Positions 7,125 to 60,532 of a stretch of 64,000 nt of DNA are shown here, piece after piece. Location: assembly GCA_041671485.1 (NCBI GenBank), contig JBAZBL010000002.1, positions 9,320 to 73,319 of the forward strand. Direction: 5' to 3'. Position numbers and translations under genes: made by a program. How positions within the stretch are numbered: the stretch's first letter is position 1; the number at the start of each line of letters is the position of its first letter. Under the pieces are notes generated by a model. That model ran no database searches. It had not been told where the DNA came from and saw nothing but the letters and a program-made list of their open reading frames with translations. Source of the DNA: Minisyncoccota bacterium (GTDB lineage: Bacteria; Patescibacteriota; Minisyncoccia; Phycocordibacterales; PALSA-1337).

Positions 7125-8966
7125 TTACTTTCTATCAGAAATCTCTCTCTGTAACTTCTCCAATATTTCCGCGGTTGGTAATTGTCCCACCTGCCCATTG
7201 TCCCTACTTTCCAACGTAACCTTGTTTGCCTCCACATCTTTGTCGCCAATAATTATAAAATAGGGGATTTTTGCTGTTTTCGCATTTCTGACTTTTTTGC
7301 CGAATCCATCATTTGAAATATCGAGTTCGGAGCGAATGAATGAGTCGTGTAATGATTCATGGACTTTTCTAGCAGTATCAAAATGAGTTTCTCCGATTGG
7401 TATGACTTTCACTTGAATAGGTGCAAGCCATAGAGGGAAGTTGCCACCATAATGTTCGATCAAAAATCCGATGAAGCGTTCATGTGTGCCGAGAGGAGCG
7501 CGGTGAATGCAGAGCGGAGTTTTCTTTGTGCCATCTTTATCGGTATATTCAAGATCAAATCTTTTTGGTACAGCAAAGTCAACTTGATTGGTTGCTAGGG
7601 TAAATTCTTTGCCAATAGCAGACCATACTTGTACATCTATCTTTGGTCCATAGAATGCGGCTTCATTGGCTACTTCTACGAAAGGTATTTTGGAATCAAC
7701 TAGTACTTTGCGTACCATATCTTCTGTTTTCTTCCATAATTCTGGCTCATCTACAAACTTTTTGCCAAGCTTCTTTGGATCGTGTGTAGAGAAACGCATT
7801 ATGTATTTGTCTATGCCAAATATCTTGAAATATTTTATATACATATCATTTACAGCCTGGAATTCACTGGCAAACTGTTCTTCTGTGCAATAGATATGTG
7901 CATCATTCATAGAAAGCATACGGACACGCATAAGGCCAAATAGTTCACCAGACTTTTCGTGGCGATAATTTGTGCCATATTCGGCTAAGCGCAAAGGTAG
8001 ATCGCGATAGCTTCTCATTCTAGAAGCAAAGATTTTGTGATGATGTGGACAATTCATGGCCTTGAGATAGTATTTGCCACCTTCATACTCCATAGGAGGG
8101 AACATAGATTCTTCATAATATGGCAAATGACCACTCTTCAGATACATAGAATCTTTGGCTATATGAGGAGTCCTAACCCTCTTATAATTCATCATGAATT
8201 CTGTTTCCTTTGCAAGTTTTTCCAATTCCTCTATCATAGCTGCGCCATTGGGTAACCATAGTGGAAGTCCTGGTCCAACATCATCATCAAATTCAAATAT
8301 ATCCATCTCTTTACCTATCTTGCGATGGTCTCTCTTTTCCGCTTCTTTCATCATGGTCTCATATTCAGATAGCTCTTTTTTATTTTCAAAAGCAAGTCCA
8401 TATATGCGAGTAAGCATTTTGTTTTTCTCATCACCACGCCAATATGCACCAGCTATGCGAGAAAGTTTCCACGAATCGGGCTTTATTTCTTTTGCAGGAT
8501 TTTCGACATGACCACCGCGACAGAGGTCGGTGAATGAAACCGCAACCTCCTCGGCGCGACGAAATGCCTTCGTTGGCTTCGCCAAGTCGCCATTTGTCGC
8601 CGCCTCAACGGTTGCGGTTTCGCTTTTATTTCCAACAGTGTAAAAAGTAATTATTTCTCCCGACTTTTCCAAGTCTTCTATCAATTCTAGTTTATAAGTA
8701 TTATCCTTGAATGAATCTTTAGCCTCCTCTGGACTCACTTCTTTATGCGAAAATGCTTGCCACTTTGGCAAAAGCTCTTTCATCTTTTTCTCTATCTTCG
8801 GCAAATCTTCATCAGTAATTTTCAAATCATCAAAGTCGTAATAAAAACCATTATCAATAGCAGGACCAATAGTGTTTTTTGCTTCTGGATATAGCTCCAA
8901 AACTGCTGCCGCTAGTAGGTGCGCGAGAGTATGTCTTTTCTTTGATAATTCTTCTGAAGGATTCAT
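7125..8966 (-). CDS. thrS: Threonyl-tRNA synthetase, short form lacking N-terminal TGS/editing domains
   Basis: Class II aaRS core plus C-terminal anticodon-binding domain. Strong similarity to ThrRS catalytic region (e.g. LAEYGTNYRHEKSGELFGLMRVR, HRAPLGTHERFIGFLIEHYGG, IIIGDKDVE). Confidence 0.88.
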   Translation of the reverse strand: MNPSEELSKKRHTLAHLLAAAVLELYPEAKNTIGPAIDNGFYYDFDDLKITDEDLPKIEKKMKELLPKWQAFSHKEVSPEEAKDSFKDNTYKLELIEDLEKSGEIITFYTVGNKSETATVEAATNGDLAKPTKAFRRAEEVAVSFTDLCRGGHVENPAKEIKPDSWKLSRIAGAYWRGDEKNKMLTRIYGLAFENKKELSEYETMMKEAEKRDHRKIGKEMDIFEFDDDVGPGLPLWLPNGAAMIEELEKLAKETEFMMNYKRVRTPHIAKDSMYLKSGHLPYYEESMFPPMEYEGGKYYLKAMNCPHHHKIFASRMRSYRDLPLRLAEYGTNYRHEKSGELFGLMRVRMLSMNDAHIYCTEEQFASEFQAVNDMYIKYFKIFGIDKYIMRFSTHDPKKLGKKFVDEPELWKKTEDMVRKVLVDSKIPFVEVANEAAFYGPKIDVQVWSAIGKEFTLATNQVDFAVPKRFDLEYTDKDGTKKTPLCIHRAPLGTHERFIGFLIEHYGGNFPLWLAPIQVKVIPIGETHFDTARKVHESLHDSFIRSELDISNDGFGKKVRNAKTAKIPYFIIIGDKDVEANKVTLESRDNGQVGQLPTAEILEKLQREISDRK

Positions 8967-10681: not shown

Positions 10682-11818
10682 ATGATTACGATAAAAGACT
10701 TGTCACTACAGAAGATAACATCTTTTCCAATGATGCCAGGAACAGCGTTTGAAGCTATAGATGATATTCTATGGTATGCAACTTCTATGAAAGCATCAGA
10801 TATCCATATAGATCCACGCATTTCTGACATACTAATAAGATTGCGAATAGATGGTCATATAGAAGAAGTAGGAATTTGGGAAAAAAGATTGCATGAAGAA
10901 ATTATTGCCAGATTGAAGATATTGGCTTGTGTAAGGACAGATCTTCATGCAGTACCACAAGACGGTAGATGGAAAGCATCAATTCGAAATGAAGAATTCA
11001 ATATACGAGTTTCATTTATGCTCACTTATCATGGTGAAAATGCTGTTATACGTCTACTACCAGCACGAGTGCCAAAACATATTTCTTTTTCCAAATTGGG
11101 ATTTACACCAGACCATGTAAGGATGATAGACCATGCTCTGAAGCGACCAAATGGCCTCATCCTTGCTACTGGTCCAACAGGTTGTGGCAAAACCACCACT
11201 CTCCATACTTGTCTATCATTCAAGGCCAGAGAACCACTATCTATCATCACTCTCGAAGATCCAGTCGAATATGAGATAGATGGTGTGAGACAAGTACATA
11301 TCAAACACAATCTAGGCATCACTTTTCCTATAGGACTTCGTGCTGCATTACGCCAAGATCCAGATGTCATCATGGTTGGAGAGATAAGAGACAATGAAAC
11401 TGCTAGAGTTGCAATCCATACAGCTCTCACTGGACATTTGGTATTTTCTACGCTTCATACAAATTCCGCACTCGAATCCATATTGCGTTTGGTTGATATG
11501 AATGTCGATAACTATCTTCTCGCTTCTACTTTGCGATTGGTCATTTCACAAAGATTGGTCAGAAATATCTGTCATGAATGTTCGCTAGCAGGATGTAGCA
11601 GTTGTAGAGGAACTGGATATGTAGGTAGATCTGTCATAGCCGAAGTGTGTGAGATTGATTCAGGATTGTCTCAATTGATTGCAAATAAAGAAGCACCGTC
11701 TGTGATTCGAGACTATGTGATATCAAAAGGATTTAGACCAATAAGTGAAGATGGAGCCGAAAAAGTCGAATGGGGAGTAACTACAAAAGAAGAGATTCTG
11801 CGCGTCTTGGCCGAATAA
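10682..11818 (+). CDS. pilB: Type IV pilus / type II secretion assembly ATPase (PilB/GspE family)
   Basis: Walker A GPTGCGKTTT, Asp box ITLEDPVEY, VGEIRD, His box TLHTN, and the tetracysteine motif CHEC...CSSC. Confidence 0.85.
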   Translation: MITIKDLSLQKITSFPMMPGTAFEAIDDILWYATSMKASDIHIDPRISDILIRLRIDGHIEEVGIWEKRLHEEIIARLKILACVRTDLHAVPQDGRWKASIRNEEFNIRVSFMLTYHGENAVIRLLPARVPKHISFSKLGFTPDHVRMIDHALKRPNGLILATGPTGCGKTTTLHTCLSFKAREPLSIITLEDPVEYEIDGVRQVHIKHNLGITFPIGLRAALRQDPDVIMVGEIRDNETARVAIHTALTGHLVFSTLHTNSALESILRLVDMNVDNYLLASTLRLVISQRLVRNICHECSLAGCSSCRGTGYVGRSVIAEVCEIDSGLSQLIANKEAPSVIRDYVISKGFRPISEDGAEKVEWGVTTKEEILRVLAE

Positions 11819-11840
11819 TAAGATCAAACTGAATATCAAT

Positions 11841-12902
11841 GTGATAAAAAATATATTTCAAAAAAGAAAATGGAAAAGGCGCGAACTTATTTTATTTCTA
11901 GAAAGACTAGAATTGTATATTTCTTCTGGTTTACCACTCGACATGTGTCTCCAAATCTCAAGTGATGGTGTTACAAAGAGACAAAAGAAAATAGTTCTTG
12001 ATATTAGGTCTGCAGTTCTCTTGGGAAGTCAATTATCGAAAGCAATGGTTGTAAATATGAATTTATCAAATACAATTGCTGGTCTTATAAGGCACGGTGA
12101 GACTTCTGGTCAACTAGGAAAAGCGCTTGTTTATGCAAAAGAACTCTTGGAAAGGGAAGAAGATCTAATAAAAAAATGTATCTCTGCACTTATTTATCCT
12201 ACTGTGATAGGAATATTTGCAATAATCCTCACATTTGCACTTGTGAAAGGCGTTATGCCACAGATCATCCCTATGCTTCGTAGTCTGAATGTACAATTGC
12301 TACTCATTACTAGAATTATTATGTTCATATCAGAGAATCTAATGAAATATAGTATTCATTTGATAGTCTTTGGTATTTTATCGACAGTAGGCCTTTTGAT
12401 TTTATATAAAAAGGTTGAGACTTTTCGGAATAAATGTCAGTCTTTTATTTCAAGATTGCCTATTATAGGTCGTTTGATAAATCTGTATTATATATCTCTA
12501 TTTACCCAATCACTCGGTTCACTCATAGAATCTGGTACATCACTTACGATTGCTTATTCAAATACAGTCTCTTCTTTGTCTTTTGCTCCAATAAAGCTTT
12601 TATGTAAAAAACAAGAAGATAATGTAAAAAATGGTTATTCACTAGGTTTAGTTTTTGCAAAAATTCATAGATTGCCACCATATATTGCACCACTTATATC
12701 TGCAGGCGAAATGGCTGGTACTCTCGGTAATTCTCTCATCCGCACAGCAAAGATTGCTGATAGTGATCTAGAATACTCTCTCAAGAAGATTACCTCTCTC
12801 ATAGAGCCAGTAATGATGGCTGGTATGGGACTTGTAGTTGGAGCGATCGCACTTTCTATAGTTTTACCAATATATGATGTATCAAAAGTTCTACAACAGT
12901 GA
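11841..12902 (+). CDS. pilC: Type IV pilus platform protein (PilC/GspF family)
   Basis: 353-aa polytopic membrane protein with GspF-like repeats. Immediately downstream of pilB. Confidence 0.75.
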   Translation: MIKNIFQKRKWKRRELILFLERLELYISSGLPLDMCLQISSDGVTKRQKKIVLDIRSAVLLGSQLSKAMVVNMNLSNTIAGLIRHGETSGQLGKALVYAKELLEREEDLIKKCISALIYPTVIGIFAIILTFALVKGVMPQIIPMLRSLNVQLLLITRIIMFISENLMKYSIHLIVFGILSTVGLLILYKKVETFRNKCQSFISRLPIIGRLINLYYISLFTQSLGSLIESGTSLTIAYSNTVSSLSFAPIKLLCKKQEDNVKNGYSLGLVFAKIHRLPPYIAPLISAGEMAGTLGNSLIRTAKIADSDLEYSLKKITSLIEPVMMAGMGLVVGAIALSIVLPIYDVSKVLQQ

Positions 12903-14287
12903 TTACAAATATTTCCAAAAACAAAGGAATATTACTCATTGATATTATGATTGCTCTTTCTTTGTCACTTCTATTTATTGTTGCAATTACCGAATCGTCT
13001 CTTATTGGTCGAAAAGTTTTTGATGGAGCAAAAAATAGGAATGATCTATTGGATGCATTCTCAGGAATTGTTTCAACTACGACTATTGATATAGTTAGTT
13101 TTTCAAGACCTTTTGGTAATGATCGAATAGAGATCATTACAAAGATAAAGAGTTTCTATGATGAGGTTACATTTCATGAAGTAATTTCATCAAATTCTAC
13201 TATCAATGCGAGTACACCTATTTGTTCTCCATTTTTTGCAAATAAAAATGTTATTGGTAATTATCAATATATAAAAGAATTTGATTCGAATAATATTGCT
13301 GACGTAGATTCAATTGAAATAAAACAAATAACATTACCAATAGATCCACTCTTACTACTCACAGATATTGAAGTTAGGAATAATATAGCATATGTCTCAA
13401 CAGATTCTGCTAGAGCATCTGATCCTGATATATTGATATTTGATATCCATGAAGTACAAAATCCAATACTTCTTTCATCTGTAAACACTGGTCCTGGAAT
13501 AGCTTCGGTATCTATCTTTGGTAATAAAATATATGGATCGGCAAGTAGTCGCATTGGACAATTACACATTATCAAATTGAATAGTCCAAATGATATATCT
13601 CTTATCAATAAATTTCGTTTGCCTCTACCATATGCAACAGCAACGGCACCACTTGGTAGTTCTGTATTCTACGATAATAATTTTGTATATCTTGGCACAG
13701 ATAAATGGGATGGCAGTGAATTGTCTATTATAGATATTGACGATCCGATGAATCCAGAAGTAGTTGGCAATTTTGAAACTGGAAGTAAGATAAATGATAT
13801 ATTTGTCCACAATAATATTGCTTATATTGTTGCTTCAGATCAGAATCAACTCCGTACTATTCACGTATTCGATCATTCAAATCCTTTATTAATAAGTTCA
13901 TTTTCTCCTACAGGTTGGCAGAGGCAAGAAGGTAAAAGTATTTCTATATTTGAAGATGGTTTGTCACTCGGACGTACTCCTGGTGGTTTCAATATTATTC
14001 AGGATCATGAAATATTCCATTGGGCTAGCACTTCAAATGGAGTACTAAATAATATGACTTCAAAAGATATTTCTGGTGGTGTATATGGCATTGTTCTCGA
14101 TAAAAACAATATTTATTTTATTACTAGAACAATTGATAAAGAGTTGATAATAGGAAACAATGATCTATCTTCTCTAGAATATAAATATTATTCACTACCT
14201 ATAGCTCCAAAAACTATTACATGTGATAGTGATCGACTTTACATTCTCGCCAATTCGGCGCCAATCATATATGAAATCACTTTCTAA
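12899..14287 (+). CDS. Pilin-like N-terminus fused to an LVIVD-type beta-propeller repeat domain (candidate minor pilin / tip adhesin)
   Basis: N-terminal KNKG/ILLIDIMIALSL resembles a prepilin cleavage site followed by a hydrophobic helix. At least four repeats of the form NIAYV..D....I.D...P..v follow. Start overlaps the pilC stop. Confidence 0.5.
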   Translation: MITNISKNKGILLIDIMIALSLSLLFIVAITESSLIGRKVFDGAKNRNDLLDAFSGIVSTTTIDIVSFSRPFGNDRIEIITKIKSFYDEVTFHEVISSNSTINASTPICSPFFANKNVIGNYQYIKEFDSNNIADVDSIEIKQITLPIDPLLLLTDIEVRNNIAYVSTDSARASDPDILIFDIHEVQNPILLSSVNTGPGIASVSIFGNKIYGSASSRIGQLHIIKLNSPNDISLINKFRLPLPYATATAPLGSSVFYDNNFVYLGTDKWDGSELSIIDIDDPMNPEVVGNFETGSKINDIFVHNNIAYIVASDQNQLRTIHVFDHSNPLLISSFSPTGWQRQEGKSISIFEDGLSLGRTPGGFNIIQDHEIFHWASTSNGVLNNMTSKDISGGVYGIVLDKNNIYFITRTIDKELIIGNNDLSSLEYKYYSLPIAPKTITCDSDRLYILANSAPIIYEITF

Positions 14288-55208: not shown

Positions 55209-55280
55209 GGCCCTATCGTCTAACGGTTAGGACATTGCCTTCTCAAGGCAGTAATCCGGGTTCGATTCCCGGTAGGGTCA
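55209..55280 (+). tRNA. tRNA-Glu (anticodon CUC)
   Basis: Hand-folded cloverleaf: acceptor ggcccta/tagggtc (one G-U pair), D arm gtc..gac, anticodon stem ttgcc/ggcag with loop ttCTCaa (U33, A37), T arm ccggg-ttcgatt-cccgg, discriminator A. No encoded CCA. Confidence 0.65.
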
Positions 55281-55286
55281 CTCGGT

Positions 55287-55322
55287 CAAAAAAGACTGGA
55301 TTATTCCAGTCTTTTTTGACCG
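55287..55322. terminator. Perfect 15-bp hairpin (gtcaaaaaagactgg / ccagtcttttttgac), bidirectional terminator-like
   Basis: Perfect inverted repeat with internal A/T runs, immediately 3' of the tRNA. Confidence 0.5.
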
Positions 55323-55762
55323 TAGGGAGGCTCTGGGAATCGAAGCCCGATTGAGATTTTATCGAGTCCGCAGGACGAAGAGAAAATCCAATTGGGGTAC
55401 TGGTCCTGTAAGGACCGATTCCCGGTAGGGTCACCAAGAGAAACATTGTAGGATTTAAGATAGCAGAGCGATTTTGTGGAAGCCAAAATCGTTCCAAAAT
55501 GCAGAAACTGAAGAAGTTTCTCTTGGTGATGTAATTGTATCATTTGCTCGAATTTTCTTCCAAAGGAATTCTTGAAGCACCCCGCCACTTTTTTATCTGG
55601 AGAAAGTGAAGCGGGGTGCTCTACTCGCCCGCACGCAGGAGTGGTTTGGAGAGGAATGCGTGCGGGCTCCCATTCTTTTTTGGCAGGGGGAATCCTTAAA
55701 TACAGAATATCATAATATCTAAACTTTGGATATTGATTATTTAGATAGATGATAGTATCATT

Positions 55763-55984
55763 ATGACTAAGTCAATCAGAACCAAAGAATATGCTTATTT
55801 TGTTGAGCGATTGCGTAAAGCTCGCGAGGAGAAAGGATTGACACAGATACAAGTTGCAAAAAAATTGAGGCGTCCACAATCGCATATTTCTAATATCGAA
55901 TCAGGACAGCAGAGAGTTGATGTTGTTGAACTTCAGACTTTTGCGAAGATTTATGGGAAGGATATTGGGTATTTTATTAAATAA
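55763..55984 (+). CDS. XRE-family HTH transcriptional regulator
   Basis: Cro/C1-type HTH (GLTQIQVAKKLRRPQSHISNIESGQQ). Confidence 0.7.
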   Translation: MTKSIRTKEYAYFVERLRKAREEKGLTQIQVAKKLRRPQSHISNIESGQQRVDVVELQTFAKIYGKDIGYFIK

Positions 55985-55995
55985 CTTTAAATGAT

Positions 55996-56502
55996 ATGAA
56001 TTGGTCAAAGGAAAATGCTTTAAAAATACTAATCCTAATAGCTCTAACAGTAGGAGCAACAGTTTTTGTTTTGAATAGCAACGGTAAAGATATCAAATTA
56101 ACTAATGTTCTAGACAAAGAAATAGAGTTACCTAAACTGGTAGAGACAAAAATTGTTAAAATTGGTCGTTATGGTCTAGATTGTCAAACTACTTACTATT
56201 CAGCCATTGTTACAGGAGATTTTTTAATTGATGAATCTTATGTAAAAATAGCTGAAGGTCATGAAAAACAAGTACTCTATGTAGAAGATAAAACTGCTAA
56301 ATTTTTTGGGGCTGACTATGCTGTAATACAAGATGACGAAAGCTATCTTGTTATCGTGCGAACCTATCCCGTTAGTGGTTTAATTGAGACAGTAACAATT
56401 AACAAGGAAAAGGGGATTGGTTTTGATACAAAGACAATGGGTATGGGTATAAGTGGAGGACCACAGTCGGATACCTATATTCTGAAGTGTTTAGAAATAT
56501 AA
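55996..56502 (+). CDS. Hypothetical membrane-anchored protein (168 aa)
   Basis: N-terminal TM helix. ORF only. Confidence 0.35.
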   Translation: MNWSKENALKILILIALTVGATVFVLNSNGKDIKLTNVLDKEIELPKLVETKIVKIGRYGLDCQTTYYSAIVTGDFLIDESYVKIAEGHEKQVLYVEDKTAKFFGADYAVIQDDESYLVIVRTYPVSGLIETVTINKEKGIGFDTKTMGMGISGGPQSDTYILKCLEI

Positions 56503-56511
56503 AACAATTAT

Positions 56512-57006
56512 ATGAAATTAAAAGAAAATTGGTTTATGATTTTACTGCTATTGCTCATAGGTATATTTGTTATTTTTTCCCTTACTAAAAAAAGTAGCGA
56601 CTCAACCGAGATAAAAAAATCATTTTCTGAAACAAATGTTTCTTCTGCTGTTCAAATAACTTGTACTTATCCTCAAGTTTTGAATGCTAATTATTTAAAT
56701 AGTGAAATTTCTCACAACATATCGCAACCTGAAACAAATCCTATAATTTTTACTTTTTCAAAACTTGAGGATCCTAAAGTGGGACAATTGAGTTATATAG
56801 ATTCAACGCGATCTATAACAAATGTTCCGATCTATAAAATAATTGATGATTCTGAAAAATTTGTCTATCTTGATGGAACTGGTGAAAATTATTTATCAAC
56901 TCATACTATCTACAAAAAAACTGGTGTTTCTACATATACAAAAACTGTGAGCATACTCGGTATTCCATCGGGAACTTTAGCCATGGGAAGCTGTGTCGGG
57001 TATTAG
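56512..57006 (+). CDS. Hypothetical secreted/membrane-anchored protein (164 aa)
   Basis: N-terminal TM helix. ORF only. Confidence 0.35.
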   Translation: MKLKENWFMILLLLLIGIFVIFSLTKKSSDSTEIKKSFSETNVSSAVQITCTYPQVLNANYLNSEISHNISQPETNPIIFTFSKLEDPKVGQLSYIDSTRSITNVPIYKIIDDSEKFVYLDGTGENYLSTHTIYKKTGVSTYTKTVSILGIPSGTLAMGSCVGY

Positions 57007-57327
57007 ACCTATGGAAAATTCAAGTAAAAAAAGCCAAGAGGAGTAGGTAGAAATTCGGAATAGTTCGACAATTAATTCTGAGGAATATCAAAGAGCAAAA
57101 GATCATATTCGAGATATACAGGGTAATGTAAATAATATTTAAATTGCTAATTTAACTGATTTTATTAGGGCATATAAAATTGAAACCGAGAAAAACATTG
57201 AAAGTAATCGTAATCTGTCACTTGTAGCTATTGGTGTTGCCATACTAATGCCTTTAATTCCAATGATAATTGATTTAATATTAAAATATTGTTCATAAAA
57301 TTATGAACAAATTAAAGAAAAAACAAT

Positions 57328-57618
57328 ATGAAATATAAAGGTGTAATTATTATTGTTCTTATTGTCGCTGGGATTTACTTCTTTTGGGGTGGAAAAGAAA
57401 CATGGCTCGGATTTTACTATCCTAATGGTTGTTTAACTTGCACAGACCAATATATTTATAGCCCACAATTTGATAATCGTGCTTCATGCCTCGCTTGGGC
57501 TACAAACACCAAGCAGCGACGAAATAATCCCAATGACGATTTTGAGTGTGGAAAAAATTGTAAAGTACCAAATAGTCCAGACGGGTTGTATGTGTGTGAT
57601 GAGACTGTAGATTACTAA
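57328..57618 (+). CDS. Small Cys-rich secreted protein (96 aa)
   Basis: Signal anchor and 7 Cys. A 10-bp-arm palindrome (ttgttcataa aa ttatgaacaa) lies just upstream. Confidence 0.35.
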   Translation: MKYKGVIIIVLIVAGIYFFWGGKETWLGFYYPNGCLTCTDQYIYSPQFDNRASCLAWATNTKQRRNNPNDDFECGKNCKVPNSPDGLYVCDETVDY

Positions 57619-57623
57619 TTCGT

Positions 57624-58022
57624 ATGACGACTGATTCTCTCATCACTCTACATCGTTATTATACTTGGGCTAACAAACTGCGTGTAGATTTTCAGAATAT
57701 TCTGGAAAATAAGAATAAAACTTCTAAAGATGAATTTGAAATAACATCTATAATGTATATGTCGTTGTGGTATGGAATGTTATATGTAGTAATCGAAGGG
57801 TGGCGAGAATTAAAATTTAAAGATCAAGTTATTGACGATTTATTGAGATCAAAATATACCAATTTACTTAGACAATACAGAAATGGAGTTTTTCATTTTC
57901 AGAAAAAATATAAAGATGAAAGATTTGAGGATTTAGATAAAGAAAAAGATGCAGTTAAATGGATAATTGATTTAAACAAAGAATTTGGGAGATTTTTTCT
58001 GGAAAAATTGAAAATGCGATGA
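57624..58022 (+). CDS. Hypothetical protein with a HEPN-like R-x4-H motif (RNGVFH)
   Basis: 132 aa, alpha-helical composition, R-x4-H near the C-terminus. The HEPN assignment is tentative. Confidence 0.35.
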   Translation: MTTDSLITLHRYYTWANKLRVDFQNILENKNKTSKDEFEITSIMYMSLWYGMLYVVIEGWRELKFKDQVIDDLLRSKYTNLLRQYRNGVFHFQKKYKDERFEDLDKEKDAVKWIIDLNKEFGRFFLEKLKMR

Positions 58023-58098
58023 TCTTTACAATACTCTGATATACGATAATCTTCACCAATTTTATTTTCTATACTATAAAATCTGAACAAATGATATA

Positions 58099-58938
58099 AT
58101 GCTATCTAATAATATGGCTGAAATAAACAAAAAAATCATAGTTTCAGGCACAAAAATATCAGTTGTCTCAAAAGACGGCCAAGATTACCTGTCTCTCACA
58201 GAAATGCTCAAGGCAAAAGATGGTGATTTTTTTATTGCTGATTGGCTCAGAAATAGGAATACTGTTGAATTTCTGGGAATATGGGAGAGTATAAACAACC
58301 CCGATTTTAATTATGGCGAATTCGCCACAATTAAAAGCCAAGCAGGGCTTAACAGCTTCAAAATCAGCGCTAAAGAATGGGTGCAAAAGACTAGGGCGAT
58401 AGGTCTCAAGGCTACTGCTGGTAGGTATGGAGGCACATTTGCACATAAAGACATCGCTTTTGAATTTGGCATGTGGATCAGTCCTCAATTTAAACTTTAC
58501 TTAATCAAAGAGTTCCAAAGGTTAAAAGATGAAGAAAAGATAAGAATAGAAACGGGCTGGGATGTAAAAAGATTACTAGCAAAAGTTAATTATCGTATTC
58601 ATACAGATGCTATCAAGGCACATCTGATACCTCCCAAGATAAGCCATATTTCCTCAACTATTTTATATGCCAATGAAGCGGATATTTTAAATGTCGCTCT
58701 ATTCGGTTTAAGCGCAAAAGAGTGGCGAGATAAAAATAAAGATAAACAAGGAAATGTGAGAGATTATGCAACTGTTGAGCAACTTGTAGTGCTTGTAAAT
58801 CTAGAATCACTCAATGCACAATACATTATTGAGGGAGTTTCTCAACCCTTGAGACTCGCCAAACTCAATGAAATAGCGATATCACAAATGAGATCTTTGA
58901 TAAATAATCCATCAATTAAGAAATTAGAAATAAAATAA
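58099..58938 (+). CDS. KilA-N domain protein (phage-associated)
   Basis: GGTFAHKDIAFEFGMWISPQFKLYLIKEFQRL closely matches the KilA-N core. Confidence 0.6.
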   Translation: MLSNNMAEINKKIIVSGTKISVVSKDGQDYLSLTEMLKAKDGDFFIADWLRNRNTVEFLGIWESINNPDFNYGEFATIKSQAGLNSFKISAKEWVQKTRAIGLKATAGRYGGTFAHKDIAFEFGMWISPQFKLYLIKEFQRLKDEEKIRIETGWDVKRLLAKVNYRIHTDAIKAHLIPPKISHISSTILYANEADILNVALFGLSAKEWRDKNKDKQGNVRDYATVEQLVVLVNLESLNAQYIIEGVSQPLRLAKLNEIAISQMRSLINNPSIKKLEIK

Positions 58939-59221
58939 CAAGGTTTGTAGTCCTCCCAAATCCCGCCAAAAAAATGGGAGCCCGCACGCATTCCTCTTCA
59001 GACCACTCCTGTGTGCGGGCGAGCAGAGCACTCTTACAGGGTCAGTACACCTTTTGGATATTTTCATTCGCTTCGCTCTGAAAATCTCAATTGTGGTACT
59101 GGTCCTGTAAGGACCGATTCCCGGTAGGGTCACATTCAAACTTTATAAGAATTTAGTATTTTGCATAACTTTATAAAGTTTGGTAATATGTTTATATTCG
59201 GTATTTAGGCCGTTTACCAAC

Positions 59222-60154
59222 ATGACCACTCGTCAAAAGCTCGAGATTATTCAGAAAATGCTGGGACTAACCCAAACCAAATTAGCCGAACGGGTTGGCG
59301 TGTCTTTTGCTGCATTCAACAGTTGGTGGACTGGCAAGTCGGAACCGAGAGCAAAAGCACTAGCCGTTATAGACGAGCTATTCATGGAGATAACTGGGCA
59401 GAAAGTTATTCCAGCTGATCAACTTACTGCAAAGAAAAAAGCTATTGAGCAAAAATCTAGCGAGCACAAGAATGTGATCCAAGAAATTTTGAATAACCCT
59501 GATATCCGTGACCAATTCATCCTCAAGCTTACATATCATAGCAACAGCATTGAGGGTAGCACCCTTACCGAGCCTGATACTGCTGCTATTCTTTTTGATA
59601 ATGCGGCATTGCCTGACAAGAGTCTGACAGAACAGCTTGAAGCAAAGAATCACCAAACAGCGTTGAATTATCTGTTTGGACATATCCTGAAAGACGAGAA
59701 AATTGATGAAAATCTAATCTTGAAATTACACAGTATTCTCATGAACGGAATCCGTCCAGATGCAGGTGCTTACAGAAATCATGGTGTTCGGATCACCGGA
59801 GTCAATCTGCCAACAGCTAATCATATGAGCATTCGTAAGCTCATTGGAGAAGTCTTTGCTCGGGTATCGGAAGACACAAAGGATATTATCAGCTTGTCTT
59901 CTTCGGTTCATGCCAAATTTGAGCAGATCCACCCATTCTCCGATGGCAATGGACGCATCGGCCGACTGTTCATGAATGCAATGCTACTCAAAGAAAATAT
60001 TGCGCCTGCAATTATTCGTCAGGAACAGAAGCGACTTTATTATATGTATCTCTATAAGGCGCAGACTAAAGACGATATGAGTCAGCTCGAGGACTTTCTA
60101 TGTGAAGCAGTTATAGATGGTTTTATGATCTTGGAGAGAAAGGATAAGAGATAG
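59222..60154 (+). CDS. Fic/Doc-family (Fido) protein with an N-terminal HTH
   Basis: Canonical Fic motif HPFSDGNGRIGRL. The N-terminus has an XRE-like HTH (LGLTQTKLAERVGVS). The ORF track starts at TTG 59180; ATG 59222 is preferred. Confidence 0.8.
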   Translation: MTTRQKLEIIQKMLGLTQTKLAERVGVSFAAFNSWWTGKSEPRAKALAVIDELFMEITGQKVIPADQLTAKKKAIEQKSSEHKNVIQEILNNPDIRDQFILKLTYHSNSIEGSTLTEPDTAAILFDNAALPDKSLTEQLEAKNHQTALNYLFGHILKDEKIDENLILKLHSILMNGIRPDAGAYRNHGVRITGVNLPTANHMSIRKLIGEVFARVSEDTKDIISLSSSVHAKFEQIHPFSDGNGRIGRLFMNAMLLKENIAPAIIRQEQKRLYYMYLYKAQTKDDMSQLEDFLCEAVIDGFMILERKDKR

Positions 60155-60532
60155 TTTATTACATTTTTATGAATATATATCTACGATTAAAGAGTCGATA
60201 AGTCAAGCTAGAAATAATAAAAGCCCTGCTGCAACGAAGTGCGCAGCAGGGCTGTCGGAAGACGGGGTAATCTCTGTTCCACGGAGCTAAACATCATCTC
60301 CAAGGTATGGAACTGGACGAGGCGTTTAAACGTCCTCTCATTCTTCGCTGTGAATGGTCAAGGCAATAGGTCGCCCATCTAGGCATTGGTTACGACCTTC
60401 GCGTATGAACGATCCAACGAGTGTACCCACATCTAGAGATAATATTAGATATATAAGATTCATTTGTAAAGCTTTACCTGTGTATATCTATCGGCCTCGC
60501 CTCGGACTTTCTTTTCTGATACCATTTAGCTT

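Follow-up and report, generated by a model that had tools for sequence, protein, structure and literature searches.

The window considered here is a stretch of 64,000 nucleotides from a Minisyncoccota bacterium (contig JBAZBL010000002.1, positions 9,320 to 73,319), in which an island of accessory genes stands behind a tRNA-Glu gene, between two copies of a hairpin-rich module found 3' of tRNA genes. This module is labelled TDE in the present report, and the block of tRNA 3'-end sequence that is repeated with it is denoted S. The island itself is of an ordinary kind, namely a recombinase-less accessory segment at a tRNA hot spot. The flanking module is out of the ordinary: it is widespread and strongly covarying, its arms are specific to the tRNA concerned, and no description of such a module was found in a full-text search of the literature.

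The tRNA-Glu locus and its repeats

The host group is Patescibacteria (Paceibacteria / Candidatus Taylorbacteria-like), and the closest MurF in GTDB is 65% identical. The murF gene stands directly 5' of tRNA-Glu(CTC), a linkage that is kept across MurF relatives; 80 genomes of relatives were gathered via MurF, and approximately 200 related loci, amounting to about 1.8 Mb and cited below by L-numbers, were compared. Because the tRNA-to-valS distance ranges from 1.5 to 9.6 kb among these relatives, with almost no genes in common, the tRNA-Glu gene is regarded as a hot spot. The tRNA, the modules and the hairpins around the island are as follows.

55209..55281, + strand: tRNA-Glu(CTC) gene (ARAGORN; Rfam RF00005, 62 bits), the last 19 nt of which (55263-55281) are S copy 1
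55253..55352, no strand: long imperfect palindrome running from the 3' part of the tRNA over the linker hairpin to the TDE1 antisense arm (BLAST self-match 86% over 71 nt)
55283..55322, + strand: linker forming a hairpin of 18 bp without mismatch and carrying A6 and T6 tracts (I6, an inverted repeat with 100% complementarity)
55315..55436, + strand: TDE1, a complete module (covariance model R1, 47.8 bits, E 1e-9, full-length)
about 55329-55344: TDE1 antisense arm, GGCTC-T-GGGAATCGAA
55346-55396: TDE1 hairpin B, followed by GTAC at 55397-55400
55402-55416: TDE1 hairpin C, GGTCC-TGTAA-GGACC
55416-55434: TDE1 sense arm S
55431..55529, no strand: hairpin at the left edge of the cargo; stem of 14 bp without mismatch, TCACCAAGAGAAAC / GTTTCTCTTGGTGA (inverted repeat I20; DNA fold z -4.6)
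55616..55688, + strand: left arm of an inverted repeat, a G+C-rich hairpin and T-run facing into the island
58962..59031, - strand: right arm of the inverted repeat, a hairpin and T-run read on the - strand and facing into the island
59010..59135, + strand: TDE2, rearranged (model R1, 24.1 bits, E 0.003, a weaker full-length match)

The 19-nt sequence CGATTCCCGGTAGGGTCAC is present in exact copies at 55263, 55416-55434 and 59115-59133, with 0 matches in 100 shuffles. An earlier note on this DNA had reported an 18-nt recurrence of the tRNA-Glu 3' end at the ends of two direct repeats; the recurrence is exact, extends to 19 nt and comprises three copies. The direct repeats, described in that note as 53 nt long, are likewise real, being 96% identical over 54 nt with a single indel (BLAST E 1e-19; ungapped, 46 nt at 98%), and they bracket 3.7 kb; copy 2 lies at 59080-59133 as had been stated, but copy 1 lies at 55382-55434, the earlier position having been 10 nt too low. 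To read these flanking repeats as simple att scars would be mistaken. The covariance model match spanning 55315-55436 shows that repeat 1 forms the 3' third of TDE1, and repeat 2 is the matching part of a second, rearranged TDE. The proposal in the earlier note that repeat 1 is the attR of a decayed first prophage is not supported, since a single conserved TDE unit makes up the 153 nt leading from the tRNA to repeat 1; similarly, the idea of two tandem integrations is made very unlikely by the fact that the supposed first element is a TDE, which is seen behind tRNA-Glu in relatives and behind many other tRNAs.

The linker hairpin resembles, by its sequence, a bidirectional intrinsic terminator for the tRNA, and comparable hairpins lie between tRNA and TDE in most relatives. 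As single-stranded DNA, the palindrome at 55253..55352 folds at -38 kcal/mol (z -10), while TDE1 gives a z of -5.1 as RNA and -4.7 as DNA; its hairpin-B core is at least 85% identical to those of TDEs at tRNA-Ile and at one other locus. The hairpin at 55431..55529 has a 5' strand that begins within the end of S. In TDE2, hairpin B, GTAC, hairpin C and the sense arm S (59115-59133) are intact, and the 5' arm has been swapped for an inverted copy of GTAC and hairpin C (59033-59048, - strand), so that 59033-59111 folds as one long palindrome in the DNA fold. In reverse orientation, 59033-59090 matches the canonical TDE cores of at least 15 loci at 82-90%.

Just inside these modules, the two arms of the inverted repeat match over 64-73 nt at 90-92% identity (E 2e-21), in each of which the stem GCCCGCACGC / GCGTGCGGGC encloses a loop of about 20 nt and precedes a T-run lying on the strand of that arm. 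Because this loop is longer than 8 nt, neither arm was called by a simple terminator scan. The inverted segments of about 67 nt and about 90% identity, each with a GC-rich hairpin and T-run, that had been noted previously are thereby confirmed, at 64-73 nt and with both arms facing inward; further copies, for which the earlier note proposed a search, were found neither in the window nor in the approximately 200 related loci.

Structure and spread of the TDE

The TDE is a structured module of 120-185 nt with five helices; its parts stand in the order of a terminator-like linker, an antisense acceptor 3' strand (GTGACCCTA), hairpin A, an antisense T-stem and T-loop (GGGGAGTCGAA), the long and variable hairpin B, GTAC, hairpin C, the top of which (CTGTAAG) is conserved, and the sense copy S. 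Many of the MurF relatives carry a copy of their own tRNA 3' end 150-180 nt downstream of the tRNA, and the intervening DNA is alignable and adopts the same fold. RNAalifold, applied to 9 of the sequences, yields 46 pairs, 25 of them with compensatory changes. In a larger set of 112 distinct sequences, obtained with the covariance model R1 that was built from the TDE alignment, 92.8% of cells pair as against 61% in shuffles, double changes occur at 45 of the 46 pairs, and the covariation score is 0.535 compared with 0.118 for shuffled alignments (0/500 reach it) and at most 0.076 for slid partners.

Of about 65 related genomes, some 17-20 have a TDE behind tRNA-Glu; with the covariance model, TDEs were also found behind tRNA-Ala and tRNA-Tyr, with arms that match each tRNA. 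In metagenome contigs of the Joint Genome Institute (JGI) that match the core pattern (at least 120 contigs), they lie behind tRNAs of at least 17 amino-acid identities. The block shared by tRNA and TDE is exactly 21 nt in 39/54 pairs, beginning at T54, where the T-loop starts, and extending to the end of the tRNA, together with 0-3 nt of genomic trailer and not CCA; the 5' arm of the TDE is the antisense of the same T54-to-3'-end block. TDEs behind different tRNAs can share hairpin-B cores with at least 85% identity, from which it follows that the core is modular and the arms are specified by the locus. Moreover, when filled and empty orthologous loci are aligned, linker and TDE lie precisely between the tRNA end and the same downstream flank.

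The module is apparently undescribed, and several known classes of element do not account for it. Two scans of IMG/VR with the TDE core pattern returned 0 matches, as against at least 120 metagenome contigs, and a phage attP was rejected on this ground. A search of Rfam 15 at permissive thresholds with the window and a canonical TDE recovered the tRNA alone, the next best hit on a TDE being drum at 18.9 bits against a threshold of 43; the drum motif is unrelated to the TDE, as are the group I introns of Patescibacteria tRNA genes described in the literature. The junctions, judged by eye, do not fit a hammerhead ribozyme core. A retroelement primer-binding site was likewise rejected because the antisense arm is complementary to the genomic trailer (TGTG..) and not to CCA (TGG..), the arms copying the non-CCA trailer.

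Two kinds of gene are encountered in the neighbourhood of these modules. A gene for a YraN/UPF0102-like predicted endonuclease lies 0.25-3.4 kb 3' of TDEs in the metagenome contigs L087, L091, L094, L106, L117, L122, L132 and L164, which may be plain synteny with tRNA-Gly and tRNA-Arg. In addition, small stand-alone open reading frames (ORFs) of the GIY-YIG type, about 85-130 aa in length, occur within a few hundred nucleotides of tRNA-Glu, tRNA-Ala or their TDEs (L004 11553-11945; L011 11630-11839; L030 11783-11992; L025 11441-11671; L057 12455-12712; L022 1153-1278; L139), and those of L004, L011 and L030 have repeated CCACTTCG...CTACGCGGTG hairpin modules upstream; they may represent a second kind of selfish element at the same sites.

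Arrays, serine recombinases and cargo

Tandem TDE units are found in L048, L127, L160, L171, L123, L137, L144, L155 and L183. In the window and in L159, L155, L057, L183 and L022, genes lie between TDE copies, all of the ORFs being co-oriented with the tRNA and the structured palindromic site standing at the 3' end of the cassettes; several cassettes have a TTGACA/TATAAT promoter immediately after S. For instance, L022 holds two near-identical complete TDEs around 6.3 kb with a MazF-like toxin and a DinG-like helicase, no recombinase domain was detected among the seven ORFs of this island that were scanned, and L036 provides the matching empty site. Convergent TDE pairs also occur, in L200 (6691-6823, + strand, and 8173-8308, - strand) and in L180 (8394-8532, + strand, and 8557-8689, - strand), which makes inversions between modules possible; the inverted hairpin-C module of TDE2 may be a small-scale example of such an inversion.

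Recombinase genes were sought by tblastn, with four large serine recombinases (LSRs) and an unverified XerD sequence as the queries. LSR genes (Resolvase, Recombinase and Zn-ribbon domains) or their remnants are present in 16 related loci, on the opposite strand and with the 3' end toward S. In nine of these 16 loci the gene runs 28-37 nt into the tRNA end, and in six it stands at a TDE 3' arm; for the remaining locus, L082, the end of the tblastn match is 219 nt away from tRNA-Glu(TTC). The LSR ORFs of L042 (4986-6767) and L188 extend into the TDE as far as hairpin B, taking in the 3' arm, hairpin C and a portion of hairpin B, so that the last 42 or so residues of the L042 protein are encoded by TDE antisense. 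The flank that is conserved in the alignment of filled and empty loci is the LSR 3' end; in the main group of LSRs this flank has an inverted T-arm-like motif at a distance of about 23 nt from S. Since LSR genes end against S, and the flank on the LSR side carries this inverted motif, S appears to behave as a half-site for LSR elements, which the TDE duplicates. The earlier note proposed a search for a tyrosine integrase; the recombinases seen at this junction in the relatives are LSRs. A tyrosine or Xer recombinase was matched only once in the roughly 1.8 Mb of related loci, by a XerD-like sequence that is not adjacent to a TDE. The possibility of an LSR remnant inside the island was also considered and rejected, permissive tblastn returning only trivial TDE-encoded matches and the flank after TDE1 not being significantly like an LSR 3' end.

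The island extends from about 55435, just after the S of TDE1, to 59133, the end of the S of TDE2. Its genes and the Fic gene beyond it are listed below.

55763..55984, + strand: XRE-family helix-turn-helix (HTH) regulator, 73 aa (Pfam HTH_3 E 8e-13; PHROG repressor families)
55996-56502, + strand: ORF of 168 aa with an N-terminal hydrophobic anchor
56512-57006, + strand: ORF of 164 aa with an N-terminal hydrophobic anchor
57328-57618, + strand: Cys-rich ORF of 96 aa with an N-terminal hydrophobic anchor
57624..58022, + strand: HEPN-like all-helical protein, 132 aa, with R86-x4-H91
58099..58938, + strand: KilA-N domain protein (Pfam E 5e-22; PADLOC PDC-S22 E 1e-125; PHROG 2657 E 2e-59)
59222..60154, + strand: HTH-Fic protein, outside repeat 2 (Pfam Fic E 8e-21, with HTH_3 at the N-terminus; PADLOC PDC-S04, SoFic)

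Profile searches and the reading of the ORFs agree with the cargo given in the earlier note, that is, an XRE regulator, three small secreted or membrane proteins, a HEPN-like protein and a KilA-N protein, with an HTH-Fic protein outside. The three anchored ORFs have no match in Pfam, PHROG or PADLOC and are predicted to be membrane-anchored. In the HEPN-like protein, R86 and H91 are invariant across 38 sequences, and the R-x4-6-H motif is present. The public gene call for the KilA-N gene begins at 58114 (274 aa); Staphylococcus phage EW and Streptococcus satellite phages encode proteins with about 50% identity to the KilA-N protein. The Fic motif HxFx(D/E)GNGRxxR is present in the translation as HPFSDGNGRIGR. 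With these defence- or addiction-type genes in place, the suggestion that the island is a candidate carrier of anti-phage or addiction functions holds, and the island is a credible carrier of putative KilA-N (PDC-S22), HEPN-like and Fic functions. As regards the Fic gene, its position after repeat 2 agrees with the earlier placing outside the element; however, a Fic fragment that is 75-83% identical is fused to a truncated TDE in L025, on account of which the gene is probably an earlier occupant of the same hot spot, that is, an older layer of its cargo and not a chromosomal neighbour.

Several smaller features accompany these genes. The 320 nt at 57007-57327, between two intact genes, have no + strand ORF of 20 aa or more and the lowest G+C of the island (0.25); they may be a decayed gene. 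Within the KilA-N gene, an 18-nt near-perfect palindrome (TTTTAATTATGGCGAATT / AATTCGCCACAATTAAAA) lies at 58305-58336, a public unitig ends at 58335, and the KilA-N homologue of L004 is truncated and inverted at the matching point, which suggests a recombination or assembly breakpoint. Between repeat 2 and the Fic gene, 43 nt of overlapping palindromes (59139-59181) are 88% identical to L016 13682-13724 at the same hot spot and could serve the HTH-Fic gene as a conserved operator or promoter. Farther on, in the interval between the Fic gene and valS, 60215-60470 (- strand) is G+C-rich and contains a strong intrinsic terminator at 60253-60222, then TTTATTATTT, and a promoter-like site at 60470-60441 on the - strand; the 231-nt RNA from this strand has a folding z of -4.4 and matches no Rfam family, none of the approximately 200 related loci resembles it in nucleotide sequence, and the interval is a candidate small RNA.

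The island differs from its surroundings in composition, with a G+C of 0.25-0.34 at 55700-58100 versus about 0.37-0.40 in the flanks, and it is not present in any relative examined. The 5' region of the KilA-N gene (58054-58342) has a 292-nt match at 88% DNA identity in L004, at the same hot spot, where MurF is only 60% identical. The same island was recovered in three public samples, in which unitigs break at 55238/55244, 55405, 58335 and 59104. As in a CIME-like (cis-mobilizable element) segment, repeats of the att type flank the island and no recombination module of its own was detected. In addition, the window contains genes for the ATPase and platform of a type IV pilus / type II secretion system (10682-14287), and DprA lies just past its right end (L203 11637-12521); competence-type machinery of this sort is consistent with DNA uptake as a route of cassette acquisition.

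Explanations for the locus and comparison with known systems

The explanation proposed here is that attachment-site modules form a short array at this locus, based on the tRNA-Glu 3' end, and that the island is a non-autonomous cassette in this array, moved in trans by LSRs or by recombination between TDEs; the chances that this is correct are put at about even. S would serve as a recombinase half-site that the TDE, working as folded or palindromic DNA and not as RNA, multiplies and carries. The 3.7-kb island between two such modules could have entered beside the S of TDE1 by site-specific recombination of the LSR type, supplied in trans, or, alternatively, through homologous exchange of the Campbell type, in which a TDE brought in on circular or transformed DNA recombines with the resident one; both routes would leave the 54-nt repeat. 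The genes from XRE to KilA-N would then be selfish or defence-type cargo, which the inward-facing hairpin/T-run repeats might insulate from outside transcription. What the earlier note had termed a satellite-like, helper-dependent island survives in so far as the cargo is a horizontally acquired segment without a recombinase at a tRNA-Glu hot spot and a helper is plausible, recombinases being present at the same junction in relatives; the decayed prophage that the note gave as the other possibility is not supported.

A number of observations weigh against this explanation. No recombinase was detected by tblastn in the 64-kb window, the earlier note having likewise reported none for the element, and none of the seven island and flank proteins covered by the Pfam scan matches Phage_integrase. 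The public unitigs, which break at repeats, yield no empty-site or circle junction. Where LSR elements adjoin the tRNA, the sequence examined contains no second S or TDE at their distal end. Serine recombinases need only a 2-bp crossover, and LSRs alone therefore do not explain a repeat of 21 or 54 nt; at the same time, the repeats around cassettes measure 5, 8, 10, 54 and about 170 nt, and lengths so variable are accounted for by homologous or illegitimate recombination at least as readily as by a single fixed crossover. Housekeeping genes (YraN, TsaD, IF-2 and others, by ORF clustering) stand after most TDEs, so that a cellular role unrelated to islands is possible. Furthermore, the explanation assigns no role to the antisense arm or to hairpins A-C, and the test for wobble pairs, in which hairpin A shows 17 G:T versus 4 A:C mismatches, argues against an RNA role without excluding it.

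In a rival account the TDE would be a structured non-coding RNA tied to tRNA genes, made by read-through or from a transcript of its own and acting in processing, as a decoy or in regulation, with the island lying between locally duplicated copies. Such an RNA, though unlikely, would suit the very strong covariation, the conserved unpaired GAAAAGG, GTAC and CTGTAAG top, the enrichment in G+C within an A+T-rich genome, RNA folds with z of -4 to -9, a helix P1 that reproduces the tRNA acceptor stem, the housekeeping genes after most copies and the G:U bias seen to some extent in hairpin A. However, over all TDE stems G:T mismatches (120) and A:C mismatches (89) are nearly equal in number, whereas the acceptor and T stems of tRNAs in the same DNA show 172 versus 15; a terminator-like hairpin normally precedes the TDE, leaving no space for a promoter; Rfam holds no match; and the arms copy the genomic trailer and not the CCA of mature tRNA ends. 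The mismatch balance, the terminator usually intervening between tRNA and TDE, and the copied trailer together favour action at the DNA level, in which the TDE would fold as a single strand, form a cruciform or offer proteins a palindromic binding site. Arrays, cassettes and the recombinase genes at S are, moreover, left unaccounted for by an RNA.

Three further accounts concern the island more than the module. A tRNA-integrating prophage or satellite, inserted twice in succession at tRNA-Glu by a tyrosine integrase and then stripped of the integrase and most genes, would explain why the direct repeats terminate in the tRNA 3' end, why the shared block starts in the T-loop, where tRNA-targeting tyrosine integrases are generally known to cross over, and why phage-associated KilA-N and XRE genes are in the cargo. 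It is nevertheless very unlikely, because the supposed first element is a conserved 150-nt structured unit of many genomes and tRNAs, no tyrosine recombinase was found near any of the approximately 200 loci apart from the one XerD-like match away from a TDE, the junction is occupied by serine recombinases, and there are no phage structural, replication or packaging genes, the PHROG matches being confined to regulators and KilA-N, nor any similarity of the island DNA to phages beyond the widely shared KilA-N gene; a decayed prophage, as assumed in the earlier note, is accordingly not indicated. The inverted repeats, being 90-92% identical, placed exactly around the coding block and unique to the island, might instead bound a non-autonomous transposon (55616-59031) that was inserted beside a TDE, with the TDE repeats incidental; yet a direct reading of the sequence gives no target-site duplication, no transposase is present, the window and the related loci hold no other copy of the repeat, the arms look like ordinary hairpin/T-run terminators, and the fusion of the right arm to an inverted TDE core suggests a TDE-related rearrangement, which makes a transposon hardly probable. 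The least probable account dispenses with mobility altogether, invoking local duplication, template switching at palindromes and unequal crossing-over around vertically inherited genes. Unequal exchange between 21-nt repeats can indeed yield tandem TDEs, and the rearranged, palindromic TDE2 points to fold-back events; but the low G+C of the island, its absence from every related locus examined, a KilA-N gene sharing 88% of its DNA with the copy of a distant species, and the high variability of the interval after the tRNA all speak for acquisition from outside.

Beyond the individual locus, a wider proposal that extends the cassette explanation is advanced tentatively, with distinctly less than even confidence: in Patescibacteria, and only there, the TDE would form a new class of portable attachment site or miniature non-autonomous DNA element, with a conserved hairpin core and arms re-specified for each tRNA, which multiplies a recombinase half-site and builds integron-like, recombinase-remote cassette arrays for the exchange of defence and addiction genes. 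Patescibacteria have very small genomes, and their routes of gene gain and loss are little known; the TDE marks the places where serine-recombinase elements and recombinase-less cassettes accumulate. If the module is a recombination platform, it would represent a second, independent answer to the integron problem, stockpiling promoter-equipped accessory genes at a safe site, and would offer a searchable DNA signature for genomic islands in a large, poorly annotated lineage. The rule by which the arms match the tRNA also raises a mechanistic question, namely how sense and antisense copies of a 21-nt target are installed around a conserved core.

Among known systems, the attachment sites of LSRs resemble the TDE in that LSR genes stand at the S junction as int stands beside attL or attR, S at about 21 nt has the size of an attB half-site, and an inverted T-arm-like motif lies on the element-side flank. 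They differ in exchanging a 2-bp core without a long repeat, known LSR sites need neither hairpins A-C nor an antisense arm, and by tblastn the window is without an LSR. Repetitive extragenic palindromic (REP) sequences and REPINs, as well as the folded attP of CTX phage, are likewise short, non-coding, hairpin-forming and multi-copy, stand 3' of genes beside terminators and may act as single-stranded DNA. REP sequences, however, are of fixed sequence genome-wide and come with a RAYT transposase, and CTX mimics dif for XerCD, whereas TDE arms are re-specified per tRNA; neither enzyme class, RAYT or Xer, was seen near TDEs.

Closer likenesses are found in the CIME accretion of streptococci and the tycheposons of Prochlorococcus and in the attC sites of integrons, including clusters of attC sites lacking integron-integrases (CALIN). 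With CIMEs and tycheposons the TDE loci share att-like repeats, the lack of a recombination module, stacking distal to the primary site and the presence of recombinase-encoding elements at the same site in related genomes; the former rely on tyrosine integrases and plain att repeats, whereas the TDE repeat lies within a complex hairpin module that is widespread, without genes, at many tRNAs. The attC sites are also imperfect palindromic modules, of about 60-180 nt, in which structure is conserved over sequence and the outer arms are complementary; they stand at the 3' end of co-oriented, mostly promoter-independent cassettes, occur as empty units, and show Watson-Crick covariation without the wobble bias of RNA, and a simple primary site heads the array, its counterpart for the TDE being the tRNA 3' end. 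In contrast to integrons, no IntI-type tyrosine recombinase is found at the TDE, the arms are copies of the tRNA from T54 to its 3' end and not R and L boxes, hairpins B and C are conserved in sequence, the island is made up of about eight genes with their own signals, and recombination at the TDE is putative. Since the defining tyrosine integrases and the site consensus are absent, TDE arrays fall outside the integron and CIME classes, although in their proposed working they would be most like attC cassette arrays and CIME accretion.

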